DNA of 64,000 bases from assembly GCA_023133415.1 (NCBI GenBank), contig JAGLWM010000002.1, positions 24,081-88,080 on the forward strand. Reading direction: 5' to 3'. The notes below the pieces were generated by a model. The model was not told the origin of the DNA. It did no database searches and saw only the letters and a program-made list of their open reading frames with translations. This document shows, in pieces, positions 25,860 through 64,000 of this stretch (position 1 is its first letter; each line of letters opens with the position of its first letter). The stretch comes from Candidatus Pacearchaeota archaeon (GTDB taxonomy: Archaea; Nanobdellota; Nanobdellia; Pacearchaeales; GW2011-AR1). A program made the position numbers and the translations under genes.

Positions 25860-26090
25860 TTAAAATATTAAGAATTTTAATTCATTCGGAGATTCTTCTA
25901 TTACATTCCTTGTAACCTTACAGATAGAGGCACCAGAAATAAAAGAATCCATAATCATTGTAGTAAGTGCAAAGGAAGGATATTCTCCAGTCTCTTTATC
26001 TAAAAACTCTTTCATCTTATCGAATAATTCTTTTTCATTTATTTGTTCTTTTTTTTCTATTAACAAAACTTCTTCAAGATACTCACACAT
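25860..26090 (-). CDS. Small hypothetical protein (possible toxin partner)
   Basis: 76 aa. Overlaps the upstream Panacea gene by 8 nt. Confidence 0.3.
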   Translation of the reverse strand: MCEYLEEVLLIEKKEQINEKELFDKMKEFLDKETGEYPSFALTTMIMDSFISGASICKVTRNVIEESPNELKFLIF

Positions 26091-26541: not shown

Positions 26542-26655
26542 ATTAAAATTACTTTTATCACCCTTTATAAAATATAATGTATTCTAATGTTTATAAATAT
26601 AATGTATTTTTTCAGGTACCTAAATCTTTAAGTAGTTCAGGAACCTGAATTTACT

Positions 26656-26820
26656 ATGAAGATTCGTAAAGTCTTAGACAAAAAAGTTGGTGAAACGGAA
26701 TACTCAAAGTATCTTGTTACACTCCCAAAGAATATAGTTTTAGAATCAAAACTTTTAGGAGAAGACGTTGAAGTAGTTCTAAAAAACGATAAAATAATTC
26801 TTCAGAAAAAGAAAATCTAG
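26656..26820 (+). CDS. AbrB/MazE (SpoVT-AbrB swapped-hairpin) small DNA-binding protein, 54 aa
   Basis: Not in the ORF track (below 60 aa). LVTLPKNIVLESKLLGEDVEVVLKNDKIIL. Flanked by TTCAGGTACCTGAA-type palindromes. Confidence 0.5.
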   Translation: MKIRKVLDKKVGETEYSKYLVTLPKNIVLESKLLGEDVEVVLKNDKIILQKKKI

Positions 26821-26923
26821 TCTAATTTCTAATTTAAGCATTAAATAAATTCAGGTACCGAAACATTTATATATCTAGCATTTGCTATTCAGGTACCTGA
26901 TATTACTCGGGAATTAAGACAAA

Positions 26924-29661: not shown

Positions 29662-29663
29662 TT

Positions 29664-31853
29664 TTAATTAATTTTATTTAAATGGAAAGCATTTTTAATT
29701 TCTTCCTCTTGTCTCTTCAAAAATTCTTTAAAATCTTCTCTCAAGCTTGTAAAATCTTCATTACGATTACTAGTTTTTTCGAAAGTATTTTGATCAATTA
29801 TAAATGTTGGACTAAACTGTACAACCCTATTTTTAGTCTTAACCTCATAGCCAATATTTTTAACCTCTTTAGTGAAAACTTCATAATCTGATTTAAGAAT
29901 TTTTTTTATTTCATTAGGTTTAGGCTTATAGGCGATAATTACTGTTGTTGCAACACCTGTTTCTCCAAAGGTGTTTCCAGGCAGATCAAATAGTGCCACA
30001 ATTCGCATTCGGTTGATTATCCATCTTCGGATATTTTTCCATTCTTTTATGGAAGCAATTGAATTAGATAGAACAATCCCCATTCTTCCGCCTTCTTCAA
30101 GTAATTTGTAAGAATTTTCTAAAAATAATACTCCCATATCCATAGACTTCGGTAAATTGCCTGGCTTCCCATCTTTCTTCTTATCTGGTTTTTCTTTATA
30201 TGTTTGATAAAGTTCAATTGTTTCTTTTGGTAAATCCCATTTCCCTTTAGCTCCTGTTTTTAAATCCCTACCCTTACCAAATGGAGGGTTGGTTGCAATA
30301 ACTTTATATTTTTTAATCTCAATATTATTATCACTTAAATTCTCCCAAGTTTCTGGATTAAAATTTTTAGTAGTAAAATATCCTGCTTTCATAATTTTTC
30401 CATTTTCTAATAATTTTTGAGAGAGGGAATCCATTTGTTCAAGAGTTGCTCCTCCATCTCCATTTAGCACCAAGTTTAGTTCTGCAAGTTTTAAGTTACT
30501 GCCCTCTATATCAAAACCATAGAAATGGCTTGCATTATCTGGAAAATCCTTCTCTTTCCTATAAGAATGTCTAAATGCCATCGCTGGGAAATCTGCGATT
30601 CCACAACAGGGATCACAAAGTTCTTCTCCAGGAATAGGATTTAATAATTTGATTATATTTTGCACGACAGGAATAGGGGTAAAAAATTGTCCCTTGTCAG
30701 CTTTTTGTTTTTCATCCCCGAAATTATTAAAAATAATTTGATTAAAACTCTCGCTTTTAGCTTTTAAGATTGCTCTTTGTTGAAACGCTTCAATTAATGC
30801 TATTAAGAATTTTTCATCGTTTGAGTCACTAGATTTAAAATCCTTACTATAATTAAATGAGGGTTTAGATAAAACATTTCCATATTCCCTTTTTGCATCT
30901 TTATATAGTTGATTTATTCTTTCCTTAAAACTTTTCTCTGCTAATCCATCAACTCTTTTTTCTGAAGGTAAAATATAGAATTGTAAATTAGACTTATTTT
31001 TTATACTTCTTTTTTCATCAAAGACTTTCAATGTTAAAAACTCTACTATTAAACTTCTCACAGGACTCTTTGGTTTAATTTTATCATTTTCTCTTTTTAA
31101 AACATGCATCAAGTCTGTAAAGGTACTTTCATCAATAACATCTAAGGAGTCAAATTTTAATTTTGCCAGATTAGAAATACTCTCATTGTTCTCAATAAAG
31201 TCTTTCTGGCAAGGTAGATTAATCAACAAATCTCTATTTTGGATATTTATATCATGTAGCCCTTCCTCTTGCAATTCTCTGTCCTCATAGAATCTTCGCA
31301 AATCAGAATTACCCAACTTTTTTAATATAATTACTTCTTCCTTGTCATCAAAATAAATACCAAAAATCCTATCTTTTGAGGTATTCTTTTCCATCATTGA
31401 GTGCAATTGATTCTCTATAACTGATTGAACATTATCCCCTTGCTTTTTTTTAGCCTCAAAAACAACCAACATCATTTTATTCATTTCTCTGAAATCTTTG
31501 TTTTGTTTTGCTTTTTCATAAGTCTTTAACCATTCTTTCTCTTTGAACACTACTATATCTGCCCTAAGTGGAGTCTTTGTATTTCCTTTTGGCTGGCTAA
31601 ATTCTACACAGATATATTCCTTGTTATATGTCCCAGAATTAACCATGCTCCAAGTCATTCTTGCCCGAAACCATTCTTCAGAAAAATTTCCTTTAGCGTC
31701 TTTTGTTTTTGCCTTTGAGCAAAATGCACTAATATTAAGTTCTTTTTCGTACCAATCTTTATCAATTAAATCTAGTTTTGAATACTTTGACTCAAACTTT
31801 CTAAAATAATCCTGGAATTTTTCATCACTCATCTTCTTCCTCCCAGCAAACAT
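29664..31853 (-). CDS. BcgI-A-like Type IIB R-M subunit: N-terminal PD-(D/E)xK endonuclease (HSDR_N-like) fused to gamma-class N6-adenine methyltransferase
   Basis: RADIVVF...VVFEAKKK (D/ExK). MTase motif I DPCCGIADF and motif IV NPPFG. 729 aa. Confidence 0.65.
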   Translation of the reverse strand: MFAGRKKMSDEKFQDYFRKFESKYSKLDLIDKDWYEKELNISAFCSKAKTKDAKGNFSEEWFRARMTWSMVNSGTYNKEYICVEFSQPKGNTKTPLRADIVVFKEKEWLKTYEKAKQNKDFREMNKMMLVVFEAKKKQGDNVQSVIENQLHSMMEKNTSKDRIFGIYFDDKEEVIILKKLGNSDLRRFYEDRELQEEGLHDINIQNRDLLINLPCQKDFIENNESISNLAKLKFDSLDVIDESTFTDLMHVLKRENDKIKPKSPVRSLIVEFLTLKVFDEKRSIKNKSNLQFYILPSEKRVDGLAEKSFKERINQLYKDAKREYGNVLSKPSFNYSKDFKSSDSNDEKFLIALIEAFQQRAILKAKSESFNQIIFNNFGDEKQKADKGQFFTPIPVVQNIIKLLNPIPGEELCDPCCGIADFPAMAFRHSYRKEKDFPDNASHFYGFDIEGSNLKLAELNLVLNGDGGATLEQMDSLSQKLLENGKIMKAGYFTTKNFNPETWENLSDNNIEIKKYKVIATNPPFGKGRDLKTGAKGKWDLPKETIELYQTYKEKPDKKKDGKPGNLPKSMDMGVLFLENSYKLLEEGGRMGIVLSNSIASIKEWKNIRRWIINRMRIVALFDLPGNTFGETGVATTVIIAYKPKPNEIKKILKSDYEVFTKEVKNIGYEVKTKNRVVQFSPTFIIDQNTFEKTSNRNEDFTSLREDFKEFLKRQEEEIKNAFHLNKIN

Positions 31854-31998
31854 AAACTTTTTTCCCAGCTAAATTCTCAGGTAAATATATTTTAGATGCA
31901 GAATTGCCATTTTTGCTTGGAGCTTTCTCTAAACATCTATTAAAATTAATTTTCTTAAGAACAATTTCACCTTTTATAATTTTTATTTCGCTTTCCAT
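31825..31998 (-). CDS. Small AbrB-like protein (57 aa), possible controller of the R-M operon
   Basis: Not in the ORF track. MESEIKIIKGEIVLKK...KIYLPENLAGKKVYV. Overlaps the start of the A-subunit gene. Confidence 0.35.
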   Translation of the reverse strand: MESEIKIIKGEIVLKKINFNRCLEKAPSKNGNSASKIYLPENLAGKKVYVCWEEEDE

Positions 31999-32090
31999 TG
32001 TAGCTACTAATAGCTTTTAATAGCTACCAACCTTTATAAACATTGTTCAGGTACCGAAACATTTATAAGTTTAAACTACAATAAGTAGCC

Positions 32091-32600
32091 ATGATAAACA
32101 AAGTAAGAAAAATAGCAGAAGATGTCTTTAGCTCACTTGGAAGCGGATATGCCGAAGAGGTCTACGAGAAAGCAATGGAAGTAGGTTTGAGGCTGGAAAA
32201 GATTCCTTACGAAAACCAAAGAGTTCTACCAGTATTTTACAAAAACTTCGCTGTGGGTATGTCTAAGCCTGATTTAATAATCAAAGATACCGAAGGAGGA
32301 GAAAAAATTATTTTAGAACTTAAAGCCACACCATCCGCAACTGGAATGAAAGAAGAGGTTCAATTACAGAAATATCTTCAAACTCTAAAAATGAAAAAAG
32401 GAATTATTATTAATTTCCCTCAAACTAACAAAGATGGTCCAGGTGCAGAGATTGAATTTAAGGAAGTTAGCGATGAGTTAAATAAGTGTGATAAATGTGG
32501 AAAAATTCTTTGTCATGGAGCTGAGTGTGAAACATGTGTTAAGGAAGAAGCTAAAAGATTGAAGGAAGCTGAGAAGAAAGAGAAGGCTGTGGATGAATGA
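32091..32600 (+). CDS. GxxExxY-family (PD-(D/E)xK-like) protein with C-terminal CxxC zinc ribbon
   Basis: LGSGYAEEVYEKAM...IILELKA. Two CxxC pairs. Confidence 0.6.
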   Translation: MINKVRKIAEDVFSSLGSGYAEEVYEKAMEVGLRLEKIPYENQRVLPVFYKNFAVGMSKPDLIIKDTEGGEKIILELKATPSATGMKEEVQLQKYLQTLKMKKGIIINFPQTNKDGPGAEIEFKEVSDELNKCDKCGKILCHGAECETCVKEEAKRLKEAEKKEKAVDE

Positions 32601-32920
32601 ATCAAGTGGACGAATTTTATGGAATTGTTAGAATAATTTTCCTCGTACTAGGTGGTATTCTTATAGGGTTTCTTCTTTGGCACCCTAGTCAGAATGATTA
32701 TGTTAGTAAAATAGATTATAATTTACTTTATCAAGATTATCAAGAATTACAGCAAGAAAATCAAGAGATAAAAGAGGATATTGGAAAGTTATTGATTGAA
32801 TATTATGGGAAACCTATCGTGTGGGATATTATTGGAATTACTAAATATAAAAAAGGTTTGTGTGCTTTAAAAATAGTATTAAAGGAAGAGATTCCATTAA
32901 TAAATAAGTTACCTTGTTAA
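32597..32920 (+). CDS. Small membrane protein
   Basis: Single TM plus coiled region. Inside the mobile element. Confidence 0.35.
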   Translation: MNQVDEFYGIVRIIFLVLGGILIGFLLWHPSQNDYVSKIDYNLLYQDYQELQQENQEIKEDIGKLLIEYYGKPIVWDIIGITKYKKGLCALKIVLKEEIPLINKLPC

Positions 32921-32923
32921 AGA

Positions 32924-33208
32924 ATGAGTATAAATTTAATTGTCTTAGGATTAAGTCTTGATTTTTTCGGAGTTGCTATATTAATATTAGTAACTCTCTT
33001 TGGAACTTGGCATCAAAAAGTTCACACAGCAAAGTGGAGCAAAAAATATTATTGGGAGGGGAGAATATTTGATTTTAGAAAATTTCCTCCAAGATTGAGG
33101 AAAGTTTTGAAATATGGATTCATTCCTCCTAAGCATATGTGGAATTCAGTCGGCTTCTTATTAATTGGTTTAGGCTTCTTGCTTCAAATAATAGGAAATC
33201 TTAGATAA
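32924..33208 (+). CDS. Small membrane protein (2 TM)
   Basis: Inside the mobile element, just before the right TIR. Confidence 0.35.
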   Translation: MSINLIVLGLSLDFFGVAILILVTLFGTWHQKVHTAKWSKKYYWEGRIFDFRKFPPRLRKVLKYGFIPPKHMWNSVGFLLIGLGFLLQIIGNLR

Positions 33209-33300
33209 GTTTCTGTGTATAAAGTAAGCTCTTATTTAGACTTTATACACAAAGCTGAGCAGGAAGATAATTTTATAAAGATTGGACTGTTTAAAACGAT

Positions 33301-33780: not shown

Positions 33781-35952
33781 GTGATTATGGTTAGTACTGA
33801 AGATATTTTGAAGAAGTATGGGTCGAAGATAGAGAGGCAGATGAGGGGATATGATGCTTCGAGTGGGAAGCGGAGTTTTAGTAAGAGTTATGAAAAGTTT
33901 CGGGTTTCGATGTTACCAGAGTTTTCACGGTATGAGAGGTGGTGTAAGTCGATGGGGAATTTGTTTGCTATTAAGGTTGGGGAGAAAGATAAGAGGAGGA
34001 TTGACCGGGCGATTGAGATTGCGCATTTGAATGTTTCTACTAGTGAGGTTGTTGTTTTCTCTACGATGTTGTTATTTTTGACTTTGTTTGGGGGAATTTT
34101 GTTATTTACTGCAATTTGGTTATTAACTGGAGTTTTTTCTTTTATGTTTTTATTTTTTATTTTTATTTTTTCAATTTTTTCATTTTTCTATTCATCGAAG
34201 GCTCCGGAGAGATTGGCGGTGAAGTGGCGGCTGAAGGCTTCGAGTCAGATGGTTCCGGCGATTTTGTATATTGTGATTTATATGAAGCATACGAGTAATT
34301 TTGAGAAGGCTGTGGCTTTTGCGGCTGAGCATTTGCAACCACCATTGAGTTTGGATTTTAAGAAGATTTTTTGGGATGTTGAAGTTGGGAAGTTTTCGAC
34401 CATTAAAGATTCGGTTGATAATTATTTGCTCGGTTGGAGGGATTATAGTTTGGAGTTTATTGGAGCGTTTCATTTGATTGAGTCAAGTTTGTATGAGCCA
34501 AGTGAGGATCGGAGAGTGCAGGTTTTGGAGAAGAGTTTGCAGGTTATTCTGGATGGTGTTTATGATAAGATGTTGAAATATACGCATGATGCGAAGGCGC
34601 CGCTGACGAATGTTTATATGTTAGGGATTGTTTTGCCGACGCTGGCTTTGGCTATTTTACCGCTTGCTTCGACGATGCTTGGGGGCGCGATTGCTTGGTA
34701 TCATGTGTTTTTGATTTTTAATGTGTTGGTGCCGTTTATGGTAATTTATATGACGAATGATGTTATGATGAGGAGGCCTGGTGGCTATGGGGAGTCTAGT
34801 TTGCTTGAGAGGAATCCACTTTATTCGAAGTATAAGAGTAGCGTTGGATATTGGAAAGGGTTTTTTTGTGCGTTGCCTTTCTTTTTGATTGGGCTGATTC
34901 CTTTTTTGTGGAGATATACTGATGCGCCACTTTTGATTGGGACGACGCGGGATTATTCTTGGTCGCAATTGGGTTTGGGTTTTTTGGGGGGTGGTGGAGT
35001 TTTTGGAATTTTGACTGATTCTGCTGGGAACTTATCTGGGCCTTTTGGTTCGGGTGCTTTGCTTTTGAGTTTGGGGATTCCGGCTGCTGTTGCCATTGTT
35101 TTTATTGTTGCGTTTAGAGAGAAGACAGAGGAGATTTTGGTTACGAGAAATAAGTATAAGGAAGTTGAGAGCGAGTTTACGTCGTCGCTATTTCAGTTGG
35201 GAAATAGAATTGGGGATGGGTCGCCTGCGGAAATTGCTTTTTTGAAGGTTTCGAGTTCTGTTAAGGGAACTGCGACTGAGGGGTTTTTTAGGATAGTGAA
35301 TGAGAATATTGGGCAGTTGGGGATGAGTTTGGAGAGGGCTCTTTTTGATCCGAAGAGGGGCGCGGTTGTTTTTTATCCTTCGCAGTTGATTGCTACTTCG
35401 ATGAAGATTTTGGTTGAGTCGGTGAAGAAGGGGTTGCAGGTTGCGGCGCGGAGCTTGATGTCGATTAGTGATTATGTTAAAAATATCAAGAAGATTAATG
35501 ATAGGTTGAATGATTTGTTGGCGGATATTATTTCGGACATGAAGTCGAATATGACTTTTTTGGCGCCGTTGTTGTCTGGGATTATTGTTGGGTTGGCTGG
35601 AATGATTACGACGATTCTTGGAACTCTGCATGAGATGTTTTCTTCTGGCGTTTTGACTGGGGAGGGGATTTTAGCCGCTGGAGGTGTTGCTGGAATTTTA
35701 TCGATTTTTGATGTGACGAAGATGATTCCGACTTATTGGTTGCAGATTGCCGTTGGGATTTATTTGATTGAGGTTGTTTTTATTTTGACGTCGACTCTTG
35801 TTACAATTAAGAGTGGGAGGGATCCTTTGCAGGCGACGGCGGAGACTGGGAAAAATTTGAAGGTTTCGATGATTCTATATTTGGTTGTTGCGATGGGGAG
35901 TATAATAGGTTTGACTGTTATTGGGGCTGTTGCTTTGGCTGGGCTTACTTAG
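33781..35952 (+). CDS. FlaJ/TadC-like polytopic membrane platform protein of a type IV pilus/archaellum-like system
   Basis: 723 aa, many TM segments and two cytoplasmic domains. Locus context with ATPase, pilins and peptidase. Confidence 0.5.
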   Translation: MIMVSTEDILKKYGSKIERQMRGYDASSGKRSFSKSYEKFRVSMLPEFSRYERWCKSMGNLFAIKVGEKDKRRIDRAIEIAHLNVSTSEVVVFSTMLLFLTLFGGILLFTAIWLLTGVFSFMFLFFIFIFSIFSFFYSSKAPERLAVKWRLKASSQMVPAILYIVIYMKHTSNFEKAVAFAAEHLQPPLSLDFKKIFWDVEVGKFSTIKDSVDNYLLGWRDYSLEFIGAFHLIESSLYEPSEDRRVQVLEKSLQVILDGVYDKMLKYTHDAKAPLTNVYMLGIVLPTLALAILPLASTMLGGAIAWYHVFLIFNVLVPFMVIYMTNDVMMRRPGGYGESSLLERNPLYSKYKSSVGYWKGFFCALPFFLIGLIPFLWRYTDAPLLIGTTRDYSWSQLGLGFLGGGGVFGILTDSAGNLSGPFGSGALLLSLGIPAAVAIVFIVAFREKTEEILVTRNKYKEVESEFTSSLFQLGNRIGDGSPAEIAFLKVSSSVKGTATEGFFRIVNENIGQLGMSLERALFDPKRGAVVFYPSQLIATSMKILVESVKKGLQVAARSLMSISDYVKNIKKINDRLNDLLADIISDMKSNMTFLAPLLSGIIVGLAGMITTILGTLHEMFSSGVLTGEGILAAGGVAGILSIFDVTKMIPTYWLQIAVGIYLIEVVFILTSTLVTIKSGRDPLQATAETGKNLKVSMILYLVVAMGSIIGLTVIGAVALAGLT

Positions 35953-36019
35953 GCAATGGTTGGATAGGCAATGGTTGGATAGGCAATGGTTGGATAGGCA
36001 ATGGTTGGATAGGCAATGG
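35951..36019 (+). repeat. 15-bp minisatellite (AGGCAATGGTTGGAT)x4.6, followed by GC hairpin GCGCTC-TGTG-GAGCGC
   Basis: Directly visible. Confidence 0.9.
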
Positions 36020-48930: not shown

Positions 48931-51900
48931 TTGAAGATGGTGGTGAAATTTGGGAGATTTTCTTTGCTGGGAATTTTTTTGGTCGTCGGTGTTTTGATGG
49001 GGTTGGGGCTTGTTTCTGCGTGGGTTGATTGTATGAGTTTTGAGGAGATGAATGGGGGGACGGCTGATTCTTGTTATGCTGCTGAAGGTTGCGTTGTAAC
49101 TTCTGATGATGGAACTGTTTTTGGTTTTAATTCTAGTAATGTTGTTGTGGATCCTTTTTGTAGTTCTGATTATTCTAATTATTGTTGTTTGCCAAAGATG
49201 TGTTGGCAATGGGATGCGACTGATCAATCAACTTGTGAAACAAATGATAATACTTTGAATTGTACTTGGAATGGTTTTTCCGAAACATTCTATTTAATGA
49301 ATGGTTCTGAATATACTGTTAATGGAACTTGTCATGGGAATTGGGACGCTATGGGGGATGATAGTTGGGGAGGTGTTAGTGATGGTTGTTGGCAAAATGA
49401 TGGGAATAAGCAAGTATGTATGAATAGTGAGAATCAGCAGAAATGTTCTTGGAAGGAAAATGATCAGAATCAAAATCCTTGGTGTGGGGTAAAGACTTTG
49501 GGTGATGCTTTGATGAAGAATTCTGGGGCTACTAGTATTGATATAGGATGTTGTGAGCAGAAGGGTTGTTGGAGTTATGATGGTAATGAATCTCAGTGTA
49601 TGAGTGATGGAACTTTTTCAGGACTTTGTACTTATGTGAATAAAACTGATGATCCTTGGTGTCCTAATCCGGAGGGTTGCTGTTATGCTAAGTCGTGTTA
49701 TGAGATCGGTGATAATGAGACGCTTTGTAATAGCTTGAAAATGGATATGATGATGCCCTGTGTTTTTAATGAGAGTAATTCTGGTATCTGTGAGGATATG
49801 GGTGGTGGTGGATTTATGTTTTTTGAGGATAGTGATTCGTGTTTTAATCAGGGTGGGTGGTATAATTCTACAGGTGATTGTGTGATGCCTAGTGGTGATT
49901 TCGGTGCTGGTGCTGGTGGTTTTATGTTTGGTGGAGGAGCTCACTGTTGGTTTGCGGATAATCAGCCATTGGTTTGTGGGAATATAACTGGTTGTGCTTA
50001 TTGTGTTGAAGGTGATGGTCCGAATGGAGTAGATAATTCTTCTAATAATATTTGTAGTGGTGTTCAGGTTGGATGGTGTGAAGGACACGTGGCTGGAGAT
50101 ATAACTTATGATAATGCAGATAATAGTGATGATTTGGCTTGTTCACATATACAAATTAAGTCTGCTTGTAATTACGGGCCTTTGCCTAATTGTGTTTGGA
50201 ATTCTTCCGCGAATTTGACCGGTGCTTTTTGTGCACCTGGAGCGAGTTCTGTGGTAAAGTCTGCGCCTCCTGTTGGTTTTTGTGAGCATCCGGATTCTAA
50301 GAATAATTATACTTTATGTACGCAGTTGATTGAGGAGTTTATGATGCCGTGTGTCTGGGATAATAGTTCTACGATTGTGAAGAATTGTACATTTAATCCC
50401 GGGGCGGTGTTTGGTTCGGGAGGGGAAACTGATTTGGGGATGGTTGGTAGTGATACGGCTTGTACTGCTGCTGGAGGGACTTGGCAGACAGAGTATTATC
50501 TTGAGGACGATATTTTGAAACAGGATTCGTGGTGTGAGATGACTGGATTTTTTAGTGTTGATAATGGTGCTGGCGAGGGCAATAAAGGGAATTGTGATAC
50601 TTCGTGTTGGGCTTGTGAGTTTAAGTATGATGGCAGTGATTGGGAAAATGGGACAGTTGCGCAGAGTGCTTGTGTCGGTTCGGCTTTAGGATATTGCGCT
50701 TGGACAAATGATAGTAATTCATTTAACGGAAAGGGATGGTGTGATTATCCTACCGAGATGGAGAGTGGCGGGGCTAAAGATTGTAATTTTGAGTGTGAAG
50801 GGTGTAATTTTATGAATAATCCTGAGAGTGCTTGCTTAGGTAGTGTTGTTGATTGTAAGTGGGTTGATGATGACCAGTCAGCTATTAATGGTTCTTGTGT
50901 TGATACATCAAAGAAGGTTTGCGATAGTGATTGTTTCTCATGTTATGATTCTGATAATTGCTATAATAGTAATGTTAGTTGTTCGTGGGATAATGATTTC
51001 GCATTATGTAAGCCGATGGGATATGAGGGGGAGGTTTGTTTTAATGGGGTAGATGATGATGGAGATGGGATGGTTGATTGCGGAGATCCTGATTGTGGTT
51101 TTGATAATTTCTGTGGGGGTTCGGTATTTGGGGGAGATTGTTTTGCCCAGATTAATGAGGGAGATTGTAACACAACATTTGCATTTGAATTAGGAGGGGA
51201 TGATTTGAATTGCACTTGGGTGACTAATGATTGGGATAGTGAGGGACATTGTGATATGCCCGGTTCTAATTGTTGGCAGTATGATAGTGATTTGGTTGCT
51301 TGCGGGGCTATTCCTGGATGTACGAATGATTCTAGTAATATGATGATGGGCGGAAATTCTATGTGTGATATTAATATGACTAAAGTGGATGCATCTAATT
51401 GTTGGGGTAATAATAATGAGAGTGTTTGTTCTGGAGATTGTCAGTGGGTTAATGATAGTTGGTGTGAGACAGAGGAAGCAGCTGGAAATGAGTGGTGTAA
51501 TAGTACTGGTGGATGGTGTGATTTTAAACCGTTTGCGACTTGTATGAGTTTGAATTCAACTAGTTGTGGAGCTAATTCTAATTGCACTTGGCATAATGAT
51601 GGTTTTTCTATGACAGCTGGAGAGGAGGATGGCTGGTGCGATGTGGCTTGTTTTAATCCGGATTGGCTGGTTGATGAGTGTGAAAATGTTAGTTTAGGAG
51701 GGCTTTGTGAATATAGAAATATGAGTGAGACTTGTCAGCCGGAGATCTTTATGATGATGGGAATGGGGGGTGGAGGGAAATCCGGATGTTGGCAATATGA
51801 TGGGAACGAAACAGGGTGTGGATTGAATAGTTTTAATTGCCAGTATAAAAATGATAGTTATGCTAATAATAATAAATCTGTTACGGAGCCTGCGGGATGG

Positions 51901-53643
51901 TGTATGGATAAAGCAGAGTTTGAGCATTTTGGAGATATGAAAGGGGATGTTATTGAGTTAGCTATGGATGCTGGGAATAGTTTTGGACAGAATGGTCCAG
52001 AGAATGAATCTGGTGTTAGTGGGGAGGTCGATTTGATTGGAATGGGAATGAGGGTGACTGATAATGGGTTTAATTTTGGTGCTGGGGTTTATAATATTAG
52101 TAGTGCTTTAGTGTGTAATGGATATATGGTTGGAGCTGGAATGAGCTTTGATGGGAGTGTAAATGAGGGGGATTTGGGTGAAGGGGATGCTACGACGAAG
52201 TTTTATTGGTATTTGGATACAAATGGTAATGAGTCTGATGGGTGTATTGCTTATGGCGGAAGTAATAGTAGTGGTTATGAATTTATGATTAGTTATATTT
52301 CAAGTAATGAAACTGGGAGTATTGTGGAGACCAAGAAGCTTATGAAATGTGGTGATGATGGATGGGTGTCTACTAATGTAATGATTACTACAAGTAAACA
52401 GATGAGTTGCGGAGAGATTGGTGGCGTGATGGTTGCTGTAGAGAAACAGGGTTTAGAATCGTTTGCGGAGTATGATAAGACTGCGAATATGAGAATTTTT
52501 ATGGCAAGTTCTAATGGTAGTGATTCTAGAACGGATCCTTCAGATTATATTGGTCCGGGATATTATACTCCGGGTATGATTGATTTTGGTTTTGTGGATT
52601 GTTCTAATCCTAATACTAAAGATCCGAAGTGTAAGAATATGCAGAAGTTTGGGTTTAATGTTTTTGAGGAGTGTATGAACGGCGTTGATGATGATGAGAA
52701 TGGTTTGGTTGATTGTTATGATCCCATGTGTTTGTTTACACCTAAGTGTGCGGAACTTTTAGGATTGGATGCATTCGCATTCGCGATAGTAGATGGTGAT
52801 AAGACCGCTCCGACGGTGATGTTTAGTGAAGTTGATGTTTTGTCAGATGCGGCGTTTATGAAGATTGATACCAATGAACCGTCTAGCTTAAATGTAACCT
52901 TTTACCATAATGATTCTACCTGTAGCGTTGAAGACACTGTTTTGAGTGATGTGGGAGATGATGCGTATCAGGCTTATGCAAAGTTTAAACCGTTCCATTC
53001 TGTTGATTTGATGGATGATAATTTAAACAATTCTTTAGAAAATGGAACTACTTATTATTATAAAATTAAGGTTTGTGACCCTTCGGATAATTGTGCGGTT
53101 TCTGCTTGTTCTAATTTTACGACGGAATCTAGTGATGTAGCCAAACAATTTATTTTTAAGCTTGATTTGCCTGATGGGTATACTGTTGATATTCCTGCTC
53201 TGAATGAGACGAGCTATAATTTTACTAAGGAGTTCGGAGGGGTGGTTTATGATGTGGGTATTAAGACGAATACTTCGGTCACTAAGAATATGAATTTTAC
53301 TGTGCACAGTAATTGTGGTAGTGGTATGAGTATTGGGTTTTATGGTGTGAATATTTTTGAACCTACAAAAATTGATTTGTCTAACGCGTTTATTTGTGAT
53401 GAGGATACGAATATGATGGGAATGAATTCAAGTCTTAAAAAATGGGATACCTTAATTGACGAGATGCATCTTGGAGGGGCTAGTGATTATATCCAGATAG
53501 AGATGCCAGTTGCATATAATTCCGCTAATACTTTTAATTTTGTGGATGATGGTGGGCTTAATCCTCAGGATGTTGATGATTATGTAAATTGTTCGGGGAC
53601 GACTACAACGGTTTGTAAGGTTCCTGTGTCATTGGGATTTTAA
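48931..53643 (+). CDS. Giant (1570 aa) secreted cysteine-rich repeat protein
   Basis: Signal/TM N-terminus. Recurring CWQ(Y/N)DGNE motifs. Two NGVDDDGDGxVDCxDPxC motifs resembling MopE-like metal-binding repeats. Confidence 0.6.
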   Translation: MKMVVKFGRFSLLGIFLVVGVLMGLGLVSAWVDCMSFEEMNGGTADSCYAAEGCVVTSDDGTVFGFNSSNVVVDPFCSSDYSNYCCLPKMCWQWDATDQSTCETNDNTLNCTWNGFSETFYLMNGSEYTVNGTCHGNWDAMGDDSWGGVSDGCWQNDGNKQVCMNSENQQKCSWKENDQNQNPWCGVKTLGDALMKNSGATSIDIGCCEQKGCWSYDGNESQCMSDGTFSGLCTYVNKTDDPWCPNPEGCCYAKSCYEIGDNETLCNSLKMDMMMPCVFNESNSGICEDMGGGGFMFFEDSDSCFNQGGWYNSTGDCVMPSGDFGAGAGGFMFGGGAHCWFADNQPLVCGNITGCAYCVEGDGPNGVDNSSNNICSGVQVGWCEGHVAGDITYDNADNSDDLACSHIQIKSACNYGPLPNCVWNSSANLTGAFCAPGASSVVKSAPPVGFCEHPDSKNNYTLCTQLIEEFMMPCVWDNSSTIVKNCTFNPGAVFGSGGETDLGMVGSDTACTAAGGTWQTEYYLEDDILKQDSWCEMTGFFSVDNGAGEGNKGNCDTSCWACEFKYDGSDWENGTVAQSACVGSALGYCAWTNDSNSFNGKGWCDYPTEMESGGAKDCNFECEGCNFMNNPESACLGSVVDCKWVDDDQSAINGSCVDTSKKVCDSDCFSCYDSDNCYNSNVSCSWDNDFALCKPMGYEGEVCFNGVDDDGDGMVDCGDPDCGFDNFCGGSVFGGDCFAQINEGDCNTTFAFELGGDDLNCTWVTNDWDSEGHCDMPGSNCWQYDSDLVACGAIPGCTNDSSNMMMGGNSMCDINMTKVDASNCWGNNNESVCSGDCQWVNDSWCETEEAAGNEWCNSTGGWCDFKPFATCMSLNSTSCGANSNCTWHNDGFSMTAGEEDGWCDVACFNPDWLVDECENVSLGGLCEYRNMSETCQPEIFMMMGMGGGGKSGCWQYDGNETGCGLNSFNCQYKNDSYANNNKSVTEPAGWCMDKAEFEHFGDMKGDVIELAMDAGNSFGQNGPENESGVSGEVDLIGMGMRVTDNGFNFGAGVYNISSALVCNGYMVGAGMSFDGSVNEGDLGEGDATTKFYWYLDTNGNESDGCIAYGGSNSSGYEFMISYISSNETGSIVETKKLMKCGDDGWVSTNVMITTSKQMSCGEIGGVMVAVEKQGLESFAEYDKTANMRIFMASSNGSDSRTDPSDYIGPGYYTPGMIDFGFVDCSNPNTKDPKCKNMQKFGFNVFEECMNGVDDDENGLVDCYDPMCLFTPKCAELLGLDAFAFAIVDGDKTAPTVMFSEVDVLSDAAFMKIDTNEPSSLNVTFYHNDSTCSVEDTVLSDVGDDAYQAYAKFKPFHSVDLMDDNLNNSLENGTTYYYKIKVCDPSDNCAVSACSNFTTESSDVAKQFIFKLDLPDGYTVDIPALNETSYNFTKEFGGVVYDVGIKTNTSVTKNMNFTVHSNCGSGMSIGFYGVNIFEPTKIDLSNAFICDEDTNMMGMNSSLKKWDTLIDEMHLGGASDYIQIEMPVAYNSANTFNFVDDGGLNPQDVDDYVNCSGTTTTVCKVPVSLGF

Positions 53644-56342: not shown

Positions 56343-56480
56343 GTATTAGGCCGCTCAGCATATTCCTAATATTTGGCAGTTCTGCATACCCGTTGGATTG
56401 GGCACTAGAATCTGCAAGTAGGCATCCCAAATTGCTTGGCAGTTCTGCACACCCTAAATTGCGAAGTCTTGGGGCGAATT
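56343..56480. repeat. Two tandem module-B cores
   Basis: GGCAGTTCTGCA(T/C)ACCC...TTGG(G)GCGA twice. Confidence 0.8.
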
Positions 56481-56617
56481 TTAGGGTAGGATTTGGGATT
56501 TGGTATTTGGAAGGGAACGGGGTATCGGGATATTTTTTCTTTTGTCAAATAAAAGAAATGCTCACATATTTTTTAAAGAAAAGGAAGTAAAAAATATGCA
56601 ATTTCCAGAAGTTTTTA

Positions 56618-58314: not shown

Positions 58315-58530
58315 TTATCTTCTTCTAAGAGGGGCTGATCGAGGAGGTGCGTCACGGATTTGAGTGAATTTATAGTGAACCGATTTTGTTTTCAAATTGC
58401 ACTTTTTACACTCGTCTTGCATAGTATATATTTTGCATTTTGGGCATTTTTTGAGTTTTGTACCGCTCAGTGTACCCCTAATCTTTTGGCAGTTCTGCAC
58501 ACTCCAAATTGTGGAATTTTGGGGCGTCAT
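58315..58530 (-). CDS. nop10: H/ACA RNP subunit Nop10 with repeat-derived N-terminal extension
   Basis: LKKCPKCKIYTMQDECKKCNLKT matches the Nop10 zinc ribbon. First 23 codons come from module-B sequence. Start overlaps the aIF2alpha stop (ATGA). Confidence 0.7.
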   Translation of the reverse strand: MTPQNSTIWSVQNCQKIRGTLSGTKLKKCPKCKIYTMQDECKKCNLKTKSVHYKFTQIRDAPPRSAPLRRR

Positions 58531-59231
58531 TTTTCTTCAGTTGCAAAAAATTCGCAGTTGTTTTCTTTTGCTCGTTTTTCTAGTTTTTCTAGAATTTTTG
58601 TCATTTCTTTTTTGCCTTGTTTGAAATCTTCTACTGTTAGTTTTAGGGAGAGTTTTCCTGCCGAGATATAGGTTACTTTTAGATTGTCGTTTTTTAGGTC
58701 GAAGATTTTTTTTATTCGTGTTATTCCATCATTTTCTAGGCATTTGATTTTTATATTTTGGCGAAGCTGTTCTTTCTTTCGTTTTTTGTTGATGATTTTT
58801 TTGATTGCTTCTTGATTTTCTTTTGGAATGTATTTTTGAAGTAGTTCGGGGTTTATTTTTGTTGCTCTTGTAAACTCGGATAGGTCTTTAAAGTCGTTTA
58901 GTATTTTTTCTTTAATTTCTTTTTCTTTTTCTTTTAGGATTTGTTTGAATGCGACGTTGATTGCTTGTGATTGTTTGAATTTTTGCATTACCTCTTTTTT
59001 TTCTTTTAAGGTTACTCTTCTTAGGGATAGATGGGCATGGTCGCCTTCGATTCTTAGGATTTTGCAGACGATTTGTTTGTTTGGGACGACATATTGTCGC
59101 ATGAGTTTGATTCGGCCGGCGGCGATTTCGGAAGAAATTATTGTTCCTTCGTGGCCGTTTGGCATTTCTACGAATGTGATTGTGTTTGTCACTTTCTTGA
59201 CCTTACAGGGTATTAAGTCTCCCTCTTTCAT
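58527..59231 (-). CDS. eif2a: Translation initiation factor 2 alpha subunit (aIF-2alpha)
   Basis: S1 domain, HLSLRRV signature. Module-A repeat directly upstream. Confidence 0.8.
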   Translation of the reverse strand: MKEGDLIPCKVKKVTNTITFVEMPNGHEGTIISSEIAAGRIKLMRQYVVPNKQIVCKILRIEGDHAHLSLRRVTLKEKKEVMQKFKQSQAINVAFKQILKEKEKEIKEKILNDFKDLSEFTRATKINPELLQKYIPKENQEAIKKIINKKRKKEQLRQNIKIKCLENDGITRIKKIFDLKNDNLKVTYISAGKLSLKLTVEDFKQGKKEMTKILEKLEKRAKENNCEFFATEEK

Positions 59232-59309
59232 TGATTTCTTTCTTTTTTAGAAAAAAAGAAATTTCTCGCAAGTAGAAAAAACTTCTTTTCCAAAACTGTG
59301 TTTTGATTT
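59232..59309. repeat. Module-A repeat
   Basis: Identical to the 4217-4292 copy. Confidence 0.8.
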
Positions 59310-59388
59310 AGTTCCATTGTTGTTTTTAGGAAATTTGTTTATTTAAATTTTTCACCCTCGCATACAATTAAGTTATGCTGGGATAGAT

Positions 59389-59559: not shown

Positions 59560-59650
59560 GGGTTTTGATGACGATTTTGGTTTTTAAGGTTTGGGGTTTC
59601 TTAGGCTTTGTGTATAAAGTCTGAATAAGGACTTACTTTTTACACAGGAA

Positions 59651-59941
59651 TTAACTTGTCGAAAAGTGAGAAAAAACCCATAATAAGACCATTGAAACAA
59701 AAACTATTCCCATACCCCAGTTTTGTAGTAATTTTATTAATTCCTTATCTTTTATCTCCAATAAGTTTGAGAATCCCGAGGAAGCTATCATAATTATTCC
59801 TCCAAACATCAACAACATAAGAAGACTTCCCAAGCTACCAATATATTCACTCATAATGTTTCTAAAAAAAGAATAGCTTTCTAAAATAAATGCTACAATA
59901 AAAGAGAGTAAAATTGTTTGTTTAATGTCTTTTTTGTTCAT
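59651..59941 (-). CDS. Small membrane protein (3 TM)
   Basis: Last gene of the tight operon. 4-nt overlap. Confidence 0.4.
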   Translation of the reverse strand: MNKKDIKQTILLSFIVAFILESYSFFRNIMSEYIGSLGSLLMLLMFGGIIMIASSGFSNLLEIKDKELIKLLQNWGMGIVFVSMVLLWVFSHFSTS

Positions 59942-61116
59942 TCCTCAACATCCTTCCGTTTAGCCAGACTAAACCTAAAACCTTTAACTACCTCAACACA
60001 TCCACAAACATCCTTATCAGAAACATCTCCTTTAAGAATATGAGAGCCAAGCCTCACGCCACAAAGCATCGAGTAAGTATCATAAAGCCCCTTCTTTTTT
60101 AATATCCCAATAAGTTTCTCTTTATCTTCAGGCATTAAACATTTATCAAACTCTTTCACTTTGGCAATCTTATTTGAACCAAAGATAGAATCGACATCAA
60201 GCTGCTTAGCGTAATCAATCAATTTTCCTTCCAGTTCTCCCTTTCTCTCTTTTAATTCTCCTAATTGCATCTTAACTTTAGAATATTCATCAACAAGCTT
60301 AACCCCATCATCTTTCTTAAATTCCTCAACAGATTTTTCTTCAAGTTCTACTTCATGTTTGAAACTTGGGCATATACCTTTGTAAACACAATAATTACAT
60401 AATCCTGTTTGATTTCTTGGGAACTCTGTCGTAGATTCAATCTCTTTAATTTTATCACAAACATCTTGTTGTAATTTTTCTAATTGCTCATCACTCCTTT
60501 CTGAAACTGCATCCTTATTAAAAGCCAACATGTGCCAAACTAACTTAACAGATTTTGCATCTTTGAATTTATCTTTAACCCAAATAGAATAAAGGGCTAG
60601 TTGTCTGTCAGCATCTGCTTCTTCTTGGTCTTTCATCCGAGCATTTGTTTTATAATCGCAGACATAATAATTTCCTTCGTTATCACAAGCCAATTTATCA
60701 ATTCTAACGTGCCATTGATTTCCGTCAGGTAGAGTCATTCGGTCAGTTGTTTCTAGTCCCAAAATTGTTAATTGGTCGAACGGCTTATATTTATCATAAT
60801 AGTCAGCGATATATTGGAGCCCCATTTTTTTGTAATTCTCAGCAGTTATTCCCTGGTCTGCTTTTGCTACTAAAATATCATCAGAGTATTCTTTTTCCCA
60901 TAGGTCTTTGTAAAATTTTAGAAGCATTGCTTTGGAAACTCTTTTTTTGAATCTCTTATCTTTGTAGAGTTTCTCAAGGGTCTGATGAACTAAATCCCCC
61001 ATAAAACATTCAATTGTCGTTGGAGTATCTACTTTAATTCTATCAATATATTTTAGTTTATACTGATAAGGACATGTTTCAAAGGTTGAGATACGGGAGT
61101 GTGAGTAGGCTGTCAT
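59938..61116 (-). CDS. Cas4/RecB-like PD-(D/E)xK nuclease with Fe-S cysteine cluster and C-terminal coiled-coil extension
   Basis: N-terminal ETCPYQYKLKY, DYKT motif, QLALY, C-x2-C-x5-C (CNYCVYKGIC). Confidence 0.6.
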   Translation of the reverse strand: MTAYSHSRISTFETCPYQYKLKYIDRIKVDTPTTIECFMGDLVHQTLEKLYKDKRFKKRVSKAMLLKFYKDLWEKEYSDDILVAKADQGITAENYKKMGLQYIADYYDKYKPFDQLTILGLETTDRMTLPDGNQWHVRIDKLACDNEGNYYVCDYKTNARMKDQEEADADRQLALYSIWVKDKFKDAKSVKLVWHMLAFNKDAVSERSDEQLEKLQQDVCDKIKEIESTTEFPRNQTGLCNYCVYKGICPSFKHEVELEEKSVEEFKKDDGVKLVDEYSKVKMQLGELKERKGELEGKLIDYAKQLDVDSIFGSNKIAKVKEFDKCLMPEDKEKLIGILKKKGLYDTYSMLCGVRLGSHILKGDVSDKDVCGCVEVVKGFRFSLAKRKDVEE

Positions 61117-61118
61117 AT

Positions 61119-62057
61119 TTAATTTTCCAATGCTTTAGAATATTTCAGCGATTTAATATAATTTTTCATAAATTCCCAATCAGGTCTTTCTTTTGAATTT
61201 ATAGGTAGCATTATTTTTGATTTTTCCATTCTTTCTTGATGCCATTTTCTACCGTAGTTAAAACGATATTTTTCTTTCTTTATCATAACTATAAGAAACA
61301 TCGCTATATATGGATTGAGTTTAAATCGTGGATATAAAACATTTACACTATCTAACGCCCAAAAAGATTCTGGTTGGTAATATGTTTCTCCAACACTGCC
61401 ATCATAATTAACCGTTATTGTATTACCCTTCTGATTGGGCGCTATGCCAAGAAATGCACTAACCCCATTATTTTTATCTATAGAAGAAACGAAGGGGCAG
61501 TCTCCCCTATCTTTTAATTTAGAAAGCACAATTCTTTTACCCTTCTTTATCTCAAATATTTCTGTATAATCAAAATATTTAAATTTTTTACTTCTTAATT
61601 CAATTTTCTCCTCTATAGCAGATTCCGACACAGCTACATAATCTTTAATGTCATTTTTTTCAGCCCATACAGGAATTTTTTCTGGGATTTTTATATTTCC
61701 TATCCTATCTGGAGTAACCTGTCTACCATAAACAAATCTAAATTTTTGCTTTCTCAATATTAAAACAAAATAAAAAAATTCCTCCAAACTCATTTCTTTT
61801 TTAGGAGTCAATACTAAACAATTATCATCGATACAGCATGACTCTCCTTGATAAAAAGCTTGACATATTGTTCCTGTATTGGGAAGAGATATAACATTCT
61901 TATATTTTGGATTTATGTCAAAATATCCATAAATTCCCCTATTCTTCCCTTTTGATGAAATTAAGGGTGTACCATTATCCCTTTTTTTTAAATCTCTTTT
62001 GGAATGATATTCTCTTTGTCCATAGTCAATATTAAAAAAGTCATATATTGTTGTCAT
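61119..62057 (-). CDS. R-M specificity (HsdS/BcgI-B-like) subunit
   Basis: Internal duplication with TRD-terminal motifs (IGNIKIPEKIP / IMLPINSKERPDWEFMKNYIKSL). Confidence 0.45.
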   Translation of the reverse strand: MTTIYDFFNIDYGQREYHSKRDLKKRDNGTPLISSKGKNRGIYGYFDINPKYKNVISLPNTGTICQAFYQGESCCIDDNCLVLTPKKEMSLEEFFYFVLILRKQKFRFVYGRQVTPDRIGNIKIPEKIPVWAEKNDIKDYVAVSESAIEEKIELRSKKFKYFDYTEIFEIKKGKRIVLSKLKDRGDCPFVSSIDKNNGVSAFLGIAPNQKGNTITVNYDGSVGETYYQPESFWALDSVNVLYPRFKLNPYIAMFLIVMIKKEKYRFNYGRKWHQERMEKSKIMLPINSKERPDWEFMKNYIKSLKYSKALEN

Positions 62058-62058
62058 T

Positions 62059-63903
62059 TTAATTCTTTAATTCTTTGTAAAGAATGTATTTTTTTATTTC
62101 CAACTCAAAAAGTTCTTTATTTAACTCCTCATAATTTGTTTCTAGATAAGCCTCTGCGCACCATTCATTCTCTGCATTCACACATTTCTTAATACTATGT
62201 TCCTTAATTTCTTTTTTGTTTTTATAATTATATATCCATTTATCCTTTATCTGGTTCCACGTACCATGATAATCTACTCTACCTAGATTTTTCACCTTGA
62301 TAAATCCATCATCTTTCCAATGACCAAAATAAGTTTCAAAATCTTTTTGATGTGGTGAATGTGCCTTAAATACTAGAATGGAAGTAACTGTACTAGCAGA
62401 GGGGTTGAATAACTCATCTGGCATAGAAAATACCGCTTCAAGAGTATGTTTTTCAAGTAATTTTTTCTTCCATTCGTAATCTTTCCCAGTTTGTGATAGA
62501 ACACAGCTAATTGGAATAATCGCGACACAAAGACCGTTTTTATCTAGGCAATCTAGATTATGATAAATAAACTCTAATTCTGAAATTGAAGTTGAATATG
62601 GGGGATTTAAAAAACCTATTGTCGGATGGTGTTTTTTAACTTTTTCTTTCATTCCATTACTAAGTGAATCCCCTTGATAAATATTAGATTTTCCATCTCC
62701 CCTCATCATCATATTAGAACAAGCATATGTAAACATATCACTTCTCTGCTCAACGCCAATAAGTTGATTTTCTTTAATATTCTTTTTCTTCTCTTCTTTA
62801 TTCCCAGCTAAGTCTAAAAGTTTTTTCATACCTTTAATTAAAAATCCAGCAGTTCCACAACAACTATCATAAATAACGTCATCAACATCGGGGTTTGCAA
62901 TTTCTACAAAAAGGTCCGTAATATGTTGTGGAGTTAAAACTAACCCAAGTTTTTTATCCCCATAAACGTACCTTATAAACTCAGAATAAAATTGTCCAAG
63001 AATATCATATCCAATATGTTCATATTCCGTAAAGGGAAATACCTTTTTATCTAATTCAAATATTAAATCTCTTAATAATGTGTTTCTTTCGTCCTCTCCA
63101 GTTTCTTTATTTCTTATTTTTTTAGCTATCGAAAGATTATTTGATTGGGATATTTTATTATATTCTCCAAGCAAAACCTTTATCTTTTCATCACCTAATT
63201 TTTTACCCCTCAGCACTCTTTCAATAGCTTTCAATAAGTCCTCTACTAGCTCCTGTGGAGTTTTCTCTAAAGGATAAGACTTTCTAAAATCTTTATTTTG
63301 TAATGCTGTTAAAATCCCACTAACTATTGTCGCCCTTTCATTTTCAGGAACAGAGTAATTATATAAAAAATCATTTAATTCCGAGGCAAAAATCAATATA
63401 TTTTCATCTTTCAATTTTTCAGCAGTTTCTTTTTTCTCAAAAATATTTAAGTAATCATAGATACTTAATAATTCTTTATCGCTTAGTTCCCTTGCATCCG
63501 AAGATTCTTTATTTATTAAGAAGTTTGATATTGTTAATTTATCTTTATTTTCTCCGCTTACTGCAATTGCGATTACATTAAAATCTTTTTTTAGAAATTC
63601 TGCATAATGCAATACTCCGTCAACGGCATATTTTTCTGGATTTTTTCCCTCGCTATCCTTTCTTTGATGGTTTTTTATATCAGCCTTACATTCTACTATT
63701 ATCGCATAATCGATGACTGAAGGAAAAGTAATTATAAATTCTGGATAACCTGCTTTGCCACTTAATGTTTTAGAAGATTTTCCTAATAATTCTTTTATAA
63801 ATTTATTTTTTGTTCTTTGTTCTTCAAATTTTATATTTCTAAATAATCCATCTGTTTTAAAATGCGTTCTAACAAAATCCTCTGTTATTCTTTCGTTTAC
63901 CAT
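62059..63903 (-). CDS. BcgI-A-like fusion: PD-ExK endonuclease domain plus gamma-class N6-adenine methyltransferase
   Basis: YPEFIITF...IIVECKAD. Motif I DSCCGTAGFL, motif IV NPPYS. Confidence 0.6.
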   Translation of the reverse strand: MVNERITEDFVRTHFKTDGLFRNIKFEEQRTKNKFIKELLGKSSKTLSGKAGYPEFIITFPSVIDYAIIVECKADIKNHQRKDSEGKNPEKYAVDGVLHYAEFLKKDFNVIAIAVSGENKDKLTISNFLINKESSDARELSDKELLSIYDYLNIFEKKETAEKLKDENILIFASELNDFLYNYSVPENERATIVSGILTALQNKDFRKSYPLEKTPQELVEDLLKAIERVLRGKKLGDEKIKVLLGEYNKISQSNNLSIAKKIRNKETGEDERNTLLRDLIFELDKKVFPFTEYEHIGYDILGQFYSEFIRYVYGDKKLGLVLTPQHITDLFVEIANPDVDDVIYDSCCGTAGFLIKGMKKLLDLAGNKEEKKKNIKENQLIGVEQRSDMFTYACSNMMMRGDGKSNIYQGDSLSNGMKEKVKKHHPTIGFLNPPYSTSISELEFIYHNLDCLDKNGLCVAIIPISCVLSQTGKDYEWKKKLLEKHTLEAVFSMPDELFNPSASTVTSILVFKAHSPHQKDFETYFGHWKDDGFIKVKNLGRVDYHGTWNQIKDKWIYNYKNKKEIKEHSIKKCVNAENEWCAEAYLETNYEELNKELFELEIKKYILYKELKN

Positions 63904-64000
63904 TATATAATTTAAGAAATGCGACTATTTAAATTGTGCGGTGATTTTGTAGTAACTTCCCAATAGTCCTAGCAATTCTCAACAACAAATTGACTACTAA

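Follow-up and report, generated by a model that had tools for sequence, protein, structure and literature searches.

An IS903-like transposon of a Pacearchaeota archaeon carries a BcgI-like restriction-modification pair together with a Cas4-family nuclease

The locus described here raises the question of whether four tightly packed genes, at the end of a 64,000-nucleotide stretch of DNA from Candidatus Pacearchaeota archaeon (assembly GCA_023133415.1, contig JAGLWM010000002.1, positions 24,081 to 88,080; hereafter the window), constitute a single new defence system. They encode an endonuclease-methyltransferase fusion, a specificity (S) subunit, a Cas4-like Fe-S nuclease and a small membrane protein, and an earlier reading of the sequence (the original prediction) had proposed that together they form a composite or new defence system, for example a BREX/DISARM-like extension of restriction-modification (R-M). 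We report the directly established gene structure, domains, motifs and fold of this block, the ends and target duplications of the transposon that carries it, a census of the cargo of related transposons and a statistical association of the nuclease with R-M genes. We lean towards the reading that the locus comprises a transposon-borne BcgI-like R-M module, an accessory Cas4-family nuclease acting on restriction ends and a variable membrane gene. The features of the block, from the transposon end inwards, are as follows.

59595 to 59603, no strand assigned: one copy of the 9-bp target-site duplication (GGTTTCTTA; TAAGAAACC on the strand of the element); the identical 9-mer lies at the other end of the element, outside the window (L001 5105-5113)
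59604 to 59650, no strand assigned: right end of the transposon, with the terminal inverted repeat GGCTTTGTGTATAAAGT (59604-59620) and an inner inverted copy that jointly form a hairpin
59651 to 59941, minus strand: small protein of 96 amino acids (aa) with three hydrophobic segments, a variable passenger gene
59938 to 61116, minus strand: 392-aa Cas4-family (pfam12705 branch) Fe-S PD-(D/E)XK nuclease with an uncharacterised C-terminal helix and alpha/beta domain
61119 to 62057, minus strand: 312-aa specificity subunit with two target-recognition domains (Methylase_S, PADLOC Specificity_II)
62059 to 63903, minus strand: 614-aa PD-ExK endonuclease/gamma-class N6-adenine methyltransferase fusion (BcgI-A-like, Type IIB/IIG)
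63904 to 63968, minus strand: intergenic region from the transposase stop to the R-M start, a likely promoter as read from the sequence, with a TTTAAATA box about 30 nucleotides (nt) upstream of the ATG (minus strand)
63969 to 64000, minus strand: final 32 nt of a DDE transposase gene (401 aa, probable IS5 family; L001 5943-7148), the remainder of which lies beyond the end of the window

The coordinates, strand and spacing of the four open reading frames (ORFs) are exactly as originally predicted, with gaps of 1 nt and 2 nt followed by a 4-nt overlap between the genes of the 392-aa and 96-aa proteins. A longer copy of the source contig region (L001), which is reversed and extends beyond the end of the window (window coordinate = 71117 - L001 coordinate), places the 401-aa DDE transposase gene directly upstream of the four genes. 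The block had also been described as A-rich and unlike the host, which agrees with the composition of third codon positions: the four-gene cassette and both transposons of the window (the second is described below) have A38 C9 G15 T38, while host genes of the plus strand have A12 C4 G37 T47 and those of the minus strand mirror this bias. Since the composition of both transposons departs from the extreme strand bias of the host, their arrival is likely to have been recent. The strand asymmetry of the host DNA is itself extreme, the plus strand being rich in G+T regardless of gene orientation across the whole window (for example, 33300-56300 and 7000-13000), with a GC skew of 0.45-0.72 per kb. 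Such values far exceed the usual replication skews.

The block (59604-64000) makes up most of an IS903-like unit transposon, 6.4 kb in length, which probably belongs to the IS5 family. The inverted repeat at 59605-59650, at which the block was predicted to start, is real: an inverted copy of the 17-mer GGCTTTGTGTATAAAGT lies at a distance of 6.4 kb, beyond the window (L001 5114-5130), and both copies are flanked by TAAGAAACC. Further copies of the terminal hairpin were located using blastn-short, and the right-end repeat was found to be about 90% conserved at the same position in the sister elements of five other loci (L002-L005 and L095). The right-end hairpin has a folding energy of -9.7 kcal/mol (z = -2.0). 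When L001 is compared with related contigs, a DNA mosaic emerges: conservation (85-90%) covers the transposase region, the ORF of the nuclease and a hairpin of 51 nt past the last gene, but neither the R-M genes nor the last small gene. Three elements in different host contexts are bounded by exact 9-bp duplications, with 14-16 of the 16 inverted-repeat bases matching; the sister element L002, from another genome, is 8.1 kb long and has the duplication GGTGGTGTT. The transposon has moved as a unit with the R-M module and an intact nuclease gene, co-oriented and tightly packed. The repeat copies at 33210 and 59605, which had been taken for an inverted pair, are instead the right ends of two different transposons in opposite orientation. 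A single 26-kb transposon spanning the two was also considered and rejected, because the two copies have separate partners and separate 9-bp duplications, and because the intervening DNA has the composition of the host and contains housekeeping genes.

The 401-aa transposase matches DDE_Tnp_1 (3e-22) and has a SWIM finger; its best NCBIfam model, transpos_IS5_2, scores 126 bits, just below the cut-off of 140. The core of the transposase is 23% identical (E = 3e-11) to an IS903-type transposase of Escherichia coli, from an IS5-family element that ends in GGCTTTGTTGAATAAATC and has GGTTAACTA as its 9-bp duplication. Ends of the form GGCTTTGT..A.AAG together with exact 9-bp duplications could be identified for 27 elements, and such ends and duplications are those of IS903. 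The two groups have in common the terminal bases (GGCTTTGT...AATAA(G/A)), the 9-bp target duplication and a homologous DDE_Tnp_1 core. They differ in transposase length, the archaeal protein exceeding the other by about 100 aa and having a SWIM zinc finger at its N terminus, and in cargo, IS903 being a bare element of 1.06 kb whereas in most of the archaeal elements there are 2-9 kb of passenger genes. A 43-aa ribbon-helix-helix-like ORF (MVKITKSFRVEPKLWTDVKVYVAKHDIDLSSFLEDAIKEKLKK; L001 5672-5803, minus strand), which is kept in L002 and L004 and could possibly be a regulator of the transposon, lies outside the window, in divergent orientation to the transposase gene.

The first two genes of the block were predicted to encode the A-subunit architecture of Type IIB systems, namely a PD-ExK nuclease fused to a gamma-class N6-adenine methyltransferase, followed by an HsdS-like subunit, and both assignments stand. 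The 614-aa protein is matched by Pfam N6_Mtase (1e-28) and along its entire length by the PADLOC model REase_MTase_IIG (PDLC03608, 2e-121), and contains DSCCGTAGF and NPPY motifs. Among 20 homologues (47-74% identity), no variation is seen at P54, E71, C72 and K73 of the nuclease motif PE...ECK, in which E55 is conserved to at least 90%; N433, P434 and P435 of the methyltransferase NPP(Y) motif are likewise invariant. In the 312-aa protein, two stretches match Methylase_S (9e-31), and residues 23-304 match PADLOC Specificity_II (PDLC03591, 6e-26), a model of 341 positions. In Type IIB systems of the BcgI type, the A subunit is both endonuclease and methyltransferase and the B subunit confers specificity; the enzyme, an A2B protomer, cuts on both sides of a bipartite site. 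The pair is taken to be BcgI-like by comparison with the general features of that enzyme. The likeness lies in the two-gene layout, in an A-like protein that joins a nuclease motif (PE...ECK, N-terminal) to a gamma-class methyltransferase with NPPY, and in an S protein that is encoded separately, measures about 310-340 aa and contains two recognition domains. Unlike BcgI, the pair is here followed by an extra nuclease gene and is carried on a transposon.

This R-M family is broad in bacteria and archaea (3801 matches). In every other complete context examined, the R-M and S genes (47-83% identical) occur alone as a module: in Sphingomonas, next to an IS1595 transposase; in a Woesearchaeota genome; in a Levybacteria genome; and on another transposon, in a contig where its neighbour is a transposase of the same SWIM and DDE kind. 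Given this solitary occurrence, the pair is a self-sufficient, horizontally mobile and complete BcgI-like R-M module. Taken alone, it is ordinary.

It is the third gene that sets the block apart from BcgI-type systems. The 392-aa protein matches Pfam PDDEXK_1 (3e-30), while the Cas4 model TIGR00372 scores it weakly, at 35.9 bits against a cut-off of 65, so that the Cas4 threshold is not reached. All the key residues on which its assignment to the Cas4/RecB family had rested (the N-terminal Cys, DYK, QxxxY and the Fe-S cysteines) are invariant among 127 diverse homologues, in which C15, H44, D140, K156 (of DYK), Q172, Y176, C240, C243 and C249 do not vary and D154-Y-K156 is invariant or nearly so; these residues make up what is predicted to be a RecB-type catalytic set and a four-cysteine Fe-S site. 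The family is large, with 2020 matches at 1e-5, of which the top 120 have 65-91% identity and a length of about 392 aa, and with 334 clusters at 1e-30 in a library clustered at 50% identity. An AlphaFold model built from the 127-sequence alignment has a predicted local distance difference test (pLDDT) score of 96.6 and replaced one from a shallower alignment of 18 sequences (pLDDT 55). In this model, the C-terminal ~130 residues form a single long helix (270-306) and then a small alpha/beta domain. The C-terminal extension, which had been described as a coiled coil, is by this model more than that. A profile search with residues 262-392 against PDB sequences found nothing below E = 0.3, and a sequence search of the nuclease against the PDB yielded only marginal matches to AdnAB. 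The modelled fold is nearer to AdnAB, AddB and ACE1 than to true Cas4.

The nuclease and Cas4 proper both have the RecB-type motifs, QxxxY and four Fe-S cysteines. Besides scoring below the curated cut-off, the nuclease is unaccompanied by cas1, cas2 or a CRISPR array: no cas genes are found in its Pfam-annotated neighbourhoods, and no CRISPR-like repeat family is present among the repeats of the window. The nuclease domains of AdnAB and AddAB are fused to superfamily 1 helicase motors, whereas the 392-aa protein is without a helicase domain. The full-length two-domain architecture is also seen in actinophage RecB-like exonucleases of 392-398 aa.

Could the four genes nevertheless be components of one new system? 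They are co-directional and tightly packed, and the nuclease and membrane-protein genes overlap by 4 nt. The fourth protein has three hydrophobic 19-residue windows, which fits the three transmembrane segments predicted for it. It has no family match in Pfam, PADLOC, NCBIfam or PHROGs, is a singleton in a clustering of 92 loci (no relative in the other 91) and is the sole member of its 90% identity cluster. The slot after the nuclease is occupied by a different gene in each sister element, namely that of a DSPc dual-specificity phosphatase in L002 and unrelated ORFs of 127 aa and 73 aa in L095. The 96-aa gene is thus a variable passenger and not a component of a conserved system. Searches with Pfam, PADLOC and NCBIfam uphold the domain assignments of the first three proteins. 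None of the BREX or DISARM models (signature genes PglZ, BrxC and BrxL, and DrmA, DrmB and DrmC, respectively) was matched, and the four proteins give only R-M, Cas4 and weak DruK matches in PADLOC. Among NCBIfam models of the MADS system, MAD2 scores the 614-aa protein at 45.5 bits against a cut-off of 720, and MAD5 does not match the 312-aa protein; the sister element L002 is nearer to MADS (431 and 106 bits), yet still below cut-off. With the R-M and S genes alone elsewhere and the nuclease not conserved beside this methyltransferase and S family, the proposal of one four-gene system, BREX/DISARM-like or otherwise, is already largely refuted by the neighbourhood data, and we regard it as highly improbable. 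The idea of an accessory nuclease, on the other hand, survives in a more general form, because the nuclease family is linked to many types of R-M system, often at the level of the operon.

The association with R-M was assessed over 80 nuclease loci from species-representative (GTDB) genomes, nearly all of Woesearchaeota, Pacearchaeota or Nanoarchaeota, in which ORFs were called and clustered, the main clusters were labelled using Pfam, and R-M genes were detected using hidden Markov models (HMMs) built from the loci themselves. The flanks of the nuclease are non-syntenic. Its recurrent neighbours include gamma-class N6 methyltransferases (of HsdM and IIG types), N6_N4 methyltransferases, HsdR, Res helicases and PLD-SNF2 proteins. 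Of the 412 genes that lie no more than three positions from the nuclease, 46 are of R-M class; among the 576 genes that are six or more positions away, 18 are (odds ratio 3.9, p = 6e-7). Of the 50 loci that have at least three genes on each side, 27 have such a gene within three positions. There is also a strong polarity, with R-M genes downstream of the nuclease in 31 loci and upstream of it in 3 (the window and its sister elements being the exceptions); most share its strand. In at least 13 species-level loci, overlaps or short gaps chain the nuclease into Type I, Type III, IIG or PLD-SNF2 genes, with overlaps of -1, -4, -8 and -17 nt running straight into R-M genes. Contigs with Pfam annotation agree, showing Type III, Type I and PLD-SNF2/Eco57I partners of the nuclease. 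Thus, the nuclease family is significantly linked to many types of R-M system, often at the level of the operon.

Related transposons provide a second view of this link. A metagenome scan with the transposase yielded 80 loci, in which exact 9-bp duplications beside inverted ends were sought automatically, and 24 further complete elements of 1.8-11.4 kb were recovered. Cargo based on a DNA methylase is present in 20 of the 26 non-redundant complete elements, in the form of IIG/IIB enzymes with or without S subunits, N6_N4 methylases, or C5 methylases with MORC-like ATPases. One of the 26 is a bare insertion sequence, and a few carry unrelated cargo (inositol-phosphate synthase, glycosyltransferases, a protease). 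A Cas4-like nuclease is carried by four of them, in each case beside a different type of R-M system, so that all four nuclease-bearing transposons also have an R-M system.

Several observations weigh against a functional tie between the nuclease and restriction. The R-M counts are approximate, since the HMMs that detect R-M genes were built from those same loci, and in about half of the nuclease loci no R-M gene can be recognised within four genes. In the window the nuclease is downstream of the R-M genes, the reverse of most loci. Of about 20 transposons with R-M cargo, only 4 also carry the nuclease, which is therefore dispensable for both restriction and transposition. Moreover, DNA homology among the sister elements starts at the ATG of the nuclease and stops at its stop codon. 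As the homology is confined to the ORF, the nuclease would behave as an independent module, which could simply gather in defence islands with toxin-antitoxin, HEPN/MNT, Fic and NYN genes. Such a stand-alone defence or repair gene would share islands and cargo bays with R-M systems without being functionally coupled to them. In keeping with this, HEPN/MNT, Fic, NYN, CARF-like, Bro-N and VirB4-like genes also recur near the nuclease, some genomes have 2-3 copies of it, and its R-M partners are too diverse for a specific complex. An independent neighbour would, however, account poorly for the strong polarity, for the overlaps straight into R-M genes and for the presence of R-M on every nuclease-bearing transposon, and we judge this explanation, the chief rival of an accessory role, rather unlikely.

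The link itself is not new. Hudaiberdiev et al. (2017; PMC5704561) noted that solo-Cas4 adjoins R-M genes in several DPANN genomes, probably as part of uncharacterised defence pathways. The nuclease described here resembles the solo-Cas4/pfam12705 Cas4-like proteins that they reported from DPANN archaea and candidate phyla radiation (CPR) bacteria, in being a Cas4-family Fe-S nuclease that lies outside CRISPR loci and beside R-M genes in DPANN. To that description we add the locus counts (82 loci), the polarity, the operon-level overlaps, the partner types, the two-domain 392-aa architecture with a confident model, and carriage by transposons. The same study described UvrD-Cas4-like fusions next to Type III R-M systems, which likewise place a pfam12705-type nuclease recurrently beside Mod/Res genes; the present nuclease differs in having no helicase fusion and in having partners beyond Type III. 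The association of the nuclease with R-M is therefore real yet already reported, and what is new is the numbers, the polarity and the range of partners.

A role in the upkeep of mobile elements was also weighed, in which the nuclease would process ends or gaps after cut-and-paste transposition, or serve recombination in the manner of phage exonucleases. Phage recombination exonucleases are among its remote homologues, which also tells against a role in restriction: the actinophage RecB-like exonucleases have its architecture, and PHROG 'exonuclease' families match it. It is carried by transposons in four cases, and VirB4/TraC-like and integrase genes lie near some copies. Set against these are its presence in only 4 of the 26 complete elements, the occurrence of a nearby DDE_Tnp_1 homologue in only 1 of the 80 nuclease loci (and that a distant one, of 27% identity), and the lack of any close relative among 2.9 million viral contigs. 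Elements of the IS903 type, as is generally known for the IS5 family, require their transposase alone. We consider such a role quite improbable. A more specific form of it, a second transposition nuclease comparable to TnsA in Tn7, was rejected, as most of the elements have no nuclease.

We return to the reading that the nuclease is an accessory to restriction. The A subunit would cut and methylate DNA and the S subunit would read a bipartite site, so that host sites are methylated and unmodified incoming DNA is cleaved. The nuclease would then act as a generic accessory on the DNA ends or single-stranded regions that restriction produces, which it would resect or nick. It may thereby complete the destruction of the invader, or it may aid chromosome repair when a new restriction system enters an unmethylated genome; such repair of self-inflicted breaks would be of direct benefit to a transposon that brings R-M genes to naive genomes. 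The host archaea are assumed to have no enzyme of the RecBCD/AddAB type. We infer the nuclease activity and its polarity, co-transcription with the R-M genes, and the functional coupling of the two. Given conservation of 65-90% in the nuclease and four unrelated classes of R-M system among its partners, a link through the DNA product is more plausible, and thus more likely, than a dedicated protein complex. A Cas4-family nuclease with an accessory role has been described in ACE1, which boosts a self-sufficient prokaryotic Argonaute (pAgo) defence (PMC12094033). ACE1 differs in its length of 266 aa, in the absence of the C-terminal domain, and in forming a heterodimer with pAgo and trimming DNA guides; no Argonaute is present here.

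The freshest element of the locus is the group of IS903-like defence-cargo transposons of DPANN archaea. According to a survey of 2019, no passenger-carrying DNA transposons had been detected in archaea (PMC6563490). We found no description of an IS903-like archaeal family of cargo transposons in the literature searched, although such absence is not proof that none exists. The window itself holds a second member, with the following features.

25380 to 33256, plus strand: sister transposon with the same inverted repeats and the 9-bp duplication GAGCAGGAA
26924 to 28165: its transposase, 85% identical to that of the four-gene element
28111 to 29661, minus strand: 516-aa S-like protein with weak similarity to MAD5 of MADS
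29664 to 31853, minus strand: 729-aa Type IIG enzyme
32091 to 32600: 169-aa PDDEXK_3/GxxExxY protein
within 25380 to 33256: two small membrane ORFs

Because the transposases of the two window transposons are 85% identical but their cargo is different, the two are separate acquisitions. Two further sister transposons (L104 100-5818 and L116 2162-8319) carry a C5 cytosine methylase, an ORF of 123-124 aa and a MORC-like HATPase_c_3 protein. The combination of Dcm with MORC is already known from defence islands.

Other repeats and ORFs of the window were also noted. An intergenic unit of about 85-120 nt (AAAAAAGAAATTTCTCGCAAGTAGAAAAAACTTC..TTCCAAAACT..GTTTTGATTTA.TTCCAT) occurs in at least six copies just upstream of gene starts (4200-4317, 6168-6370, 6411-6463, 7392-7513, 22352-22485 and 59215-59332). 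A scan of the window against Rfam gave no match, this unit included; the unit may be a small mobile repeat, or else a promoter or leader common to several genes. A second intergenic repeat contains GGCAGTTCTGCACACCCCAAATTGCGGAGTCTTGGGGC, has the potential to form a CCCCAA...TTGGGG hairpin and is found at 4561-4642, 6368-6409, 8142-8223, 22388-22429, 56405-56486 and 58455-58536. Tandem repeats are present at 7693-7860 (about 14 copies of a 12-nt unit, GAGATGCCAGGT) and 35929-36018 (4-6 copies of a 15-nt unit, GGTTGGATAGGCAAT), both of which are taken to be coding. A 1570-aa ORF on the plus strand (48931-53643) has no Pfam match on record in the contig annotation.

The role of the solo Cas4 proteins that are widespread in DPANN and CPR has been a question since 2017, and this locus and its relatives provide a concrete and testable case, in which one conserved nuclease occurs in operons with restriction systems of four classes and at times travels with them on a transposon. 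The 26 complete elements, with their precise ends, show a route by which R-M systems pass between very small genomes. To our knowledge, DPANN archaea and CPR bacteria are mostly without CRISPR and have few known defences. We put forward, as a tentative possibility, that the nuclease is a type-independent partner of R-M systems in DPANN that fills the role of RecBCD/AddAB, and that the IS903-like elements are the first documented family of archaeal transposons specialised for defence cargo. If so, the nuclease would turn restriction breaks into the full degradation of foreign DNA, or would rescue the host from self-restriction, and the IS903-like elements would spread R-M modules, sometimes together with the nuclease, among genome-reduced archaea that mostly have no CRISPR.

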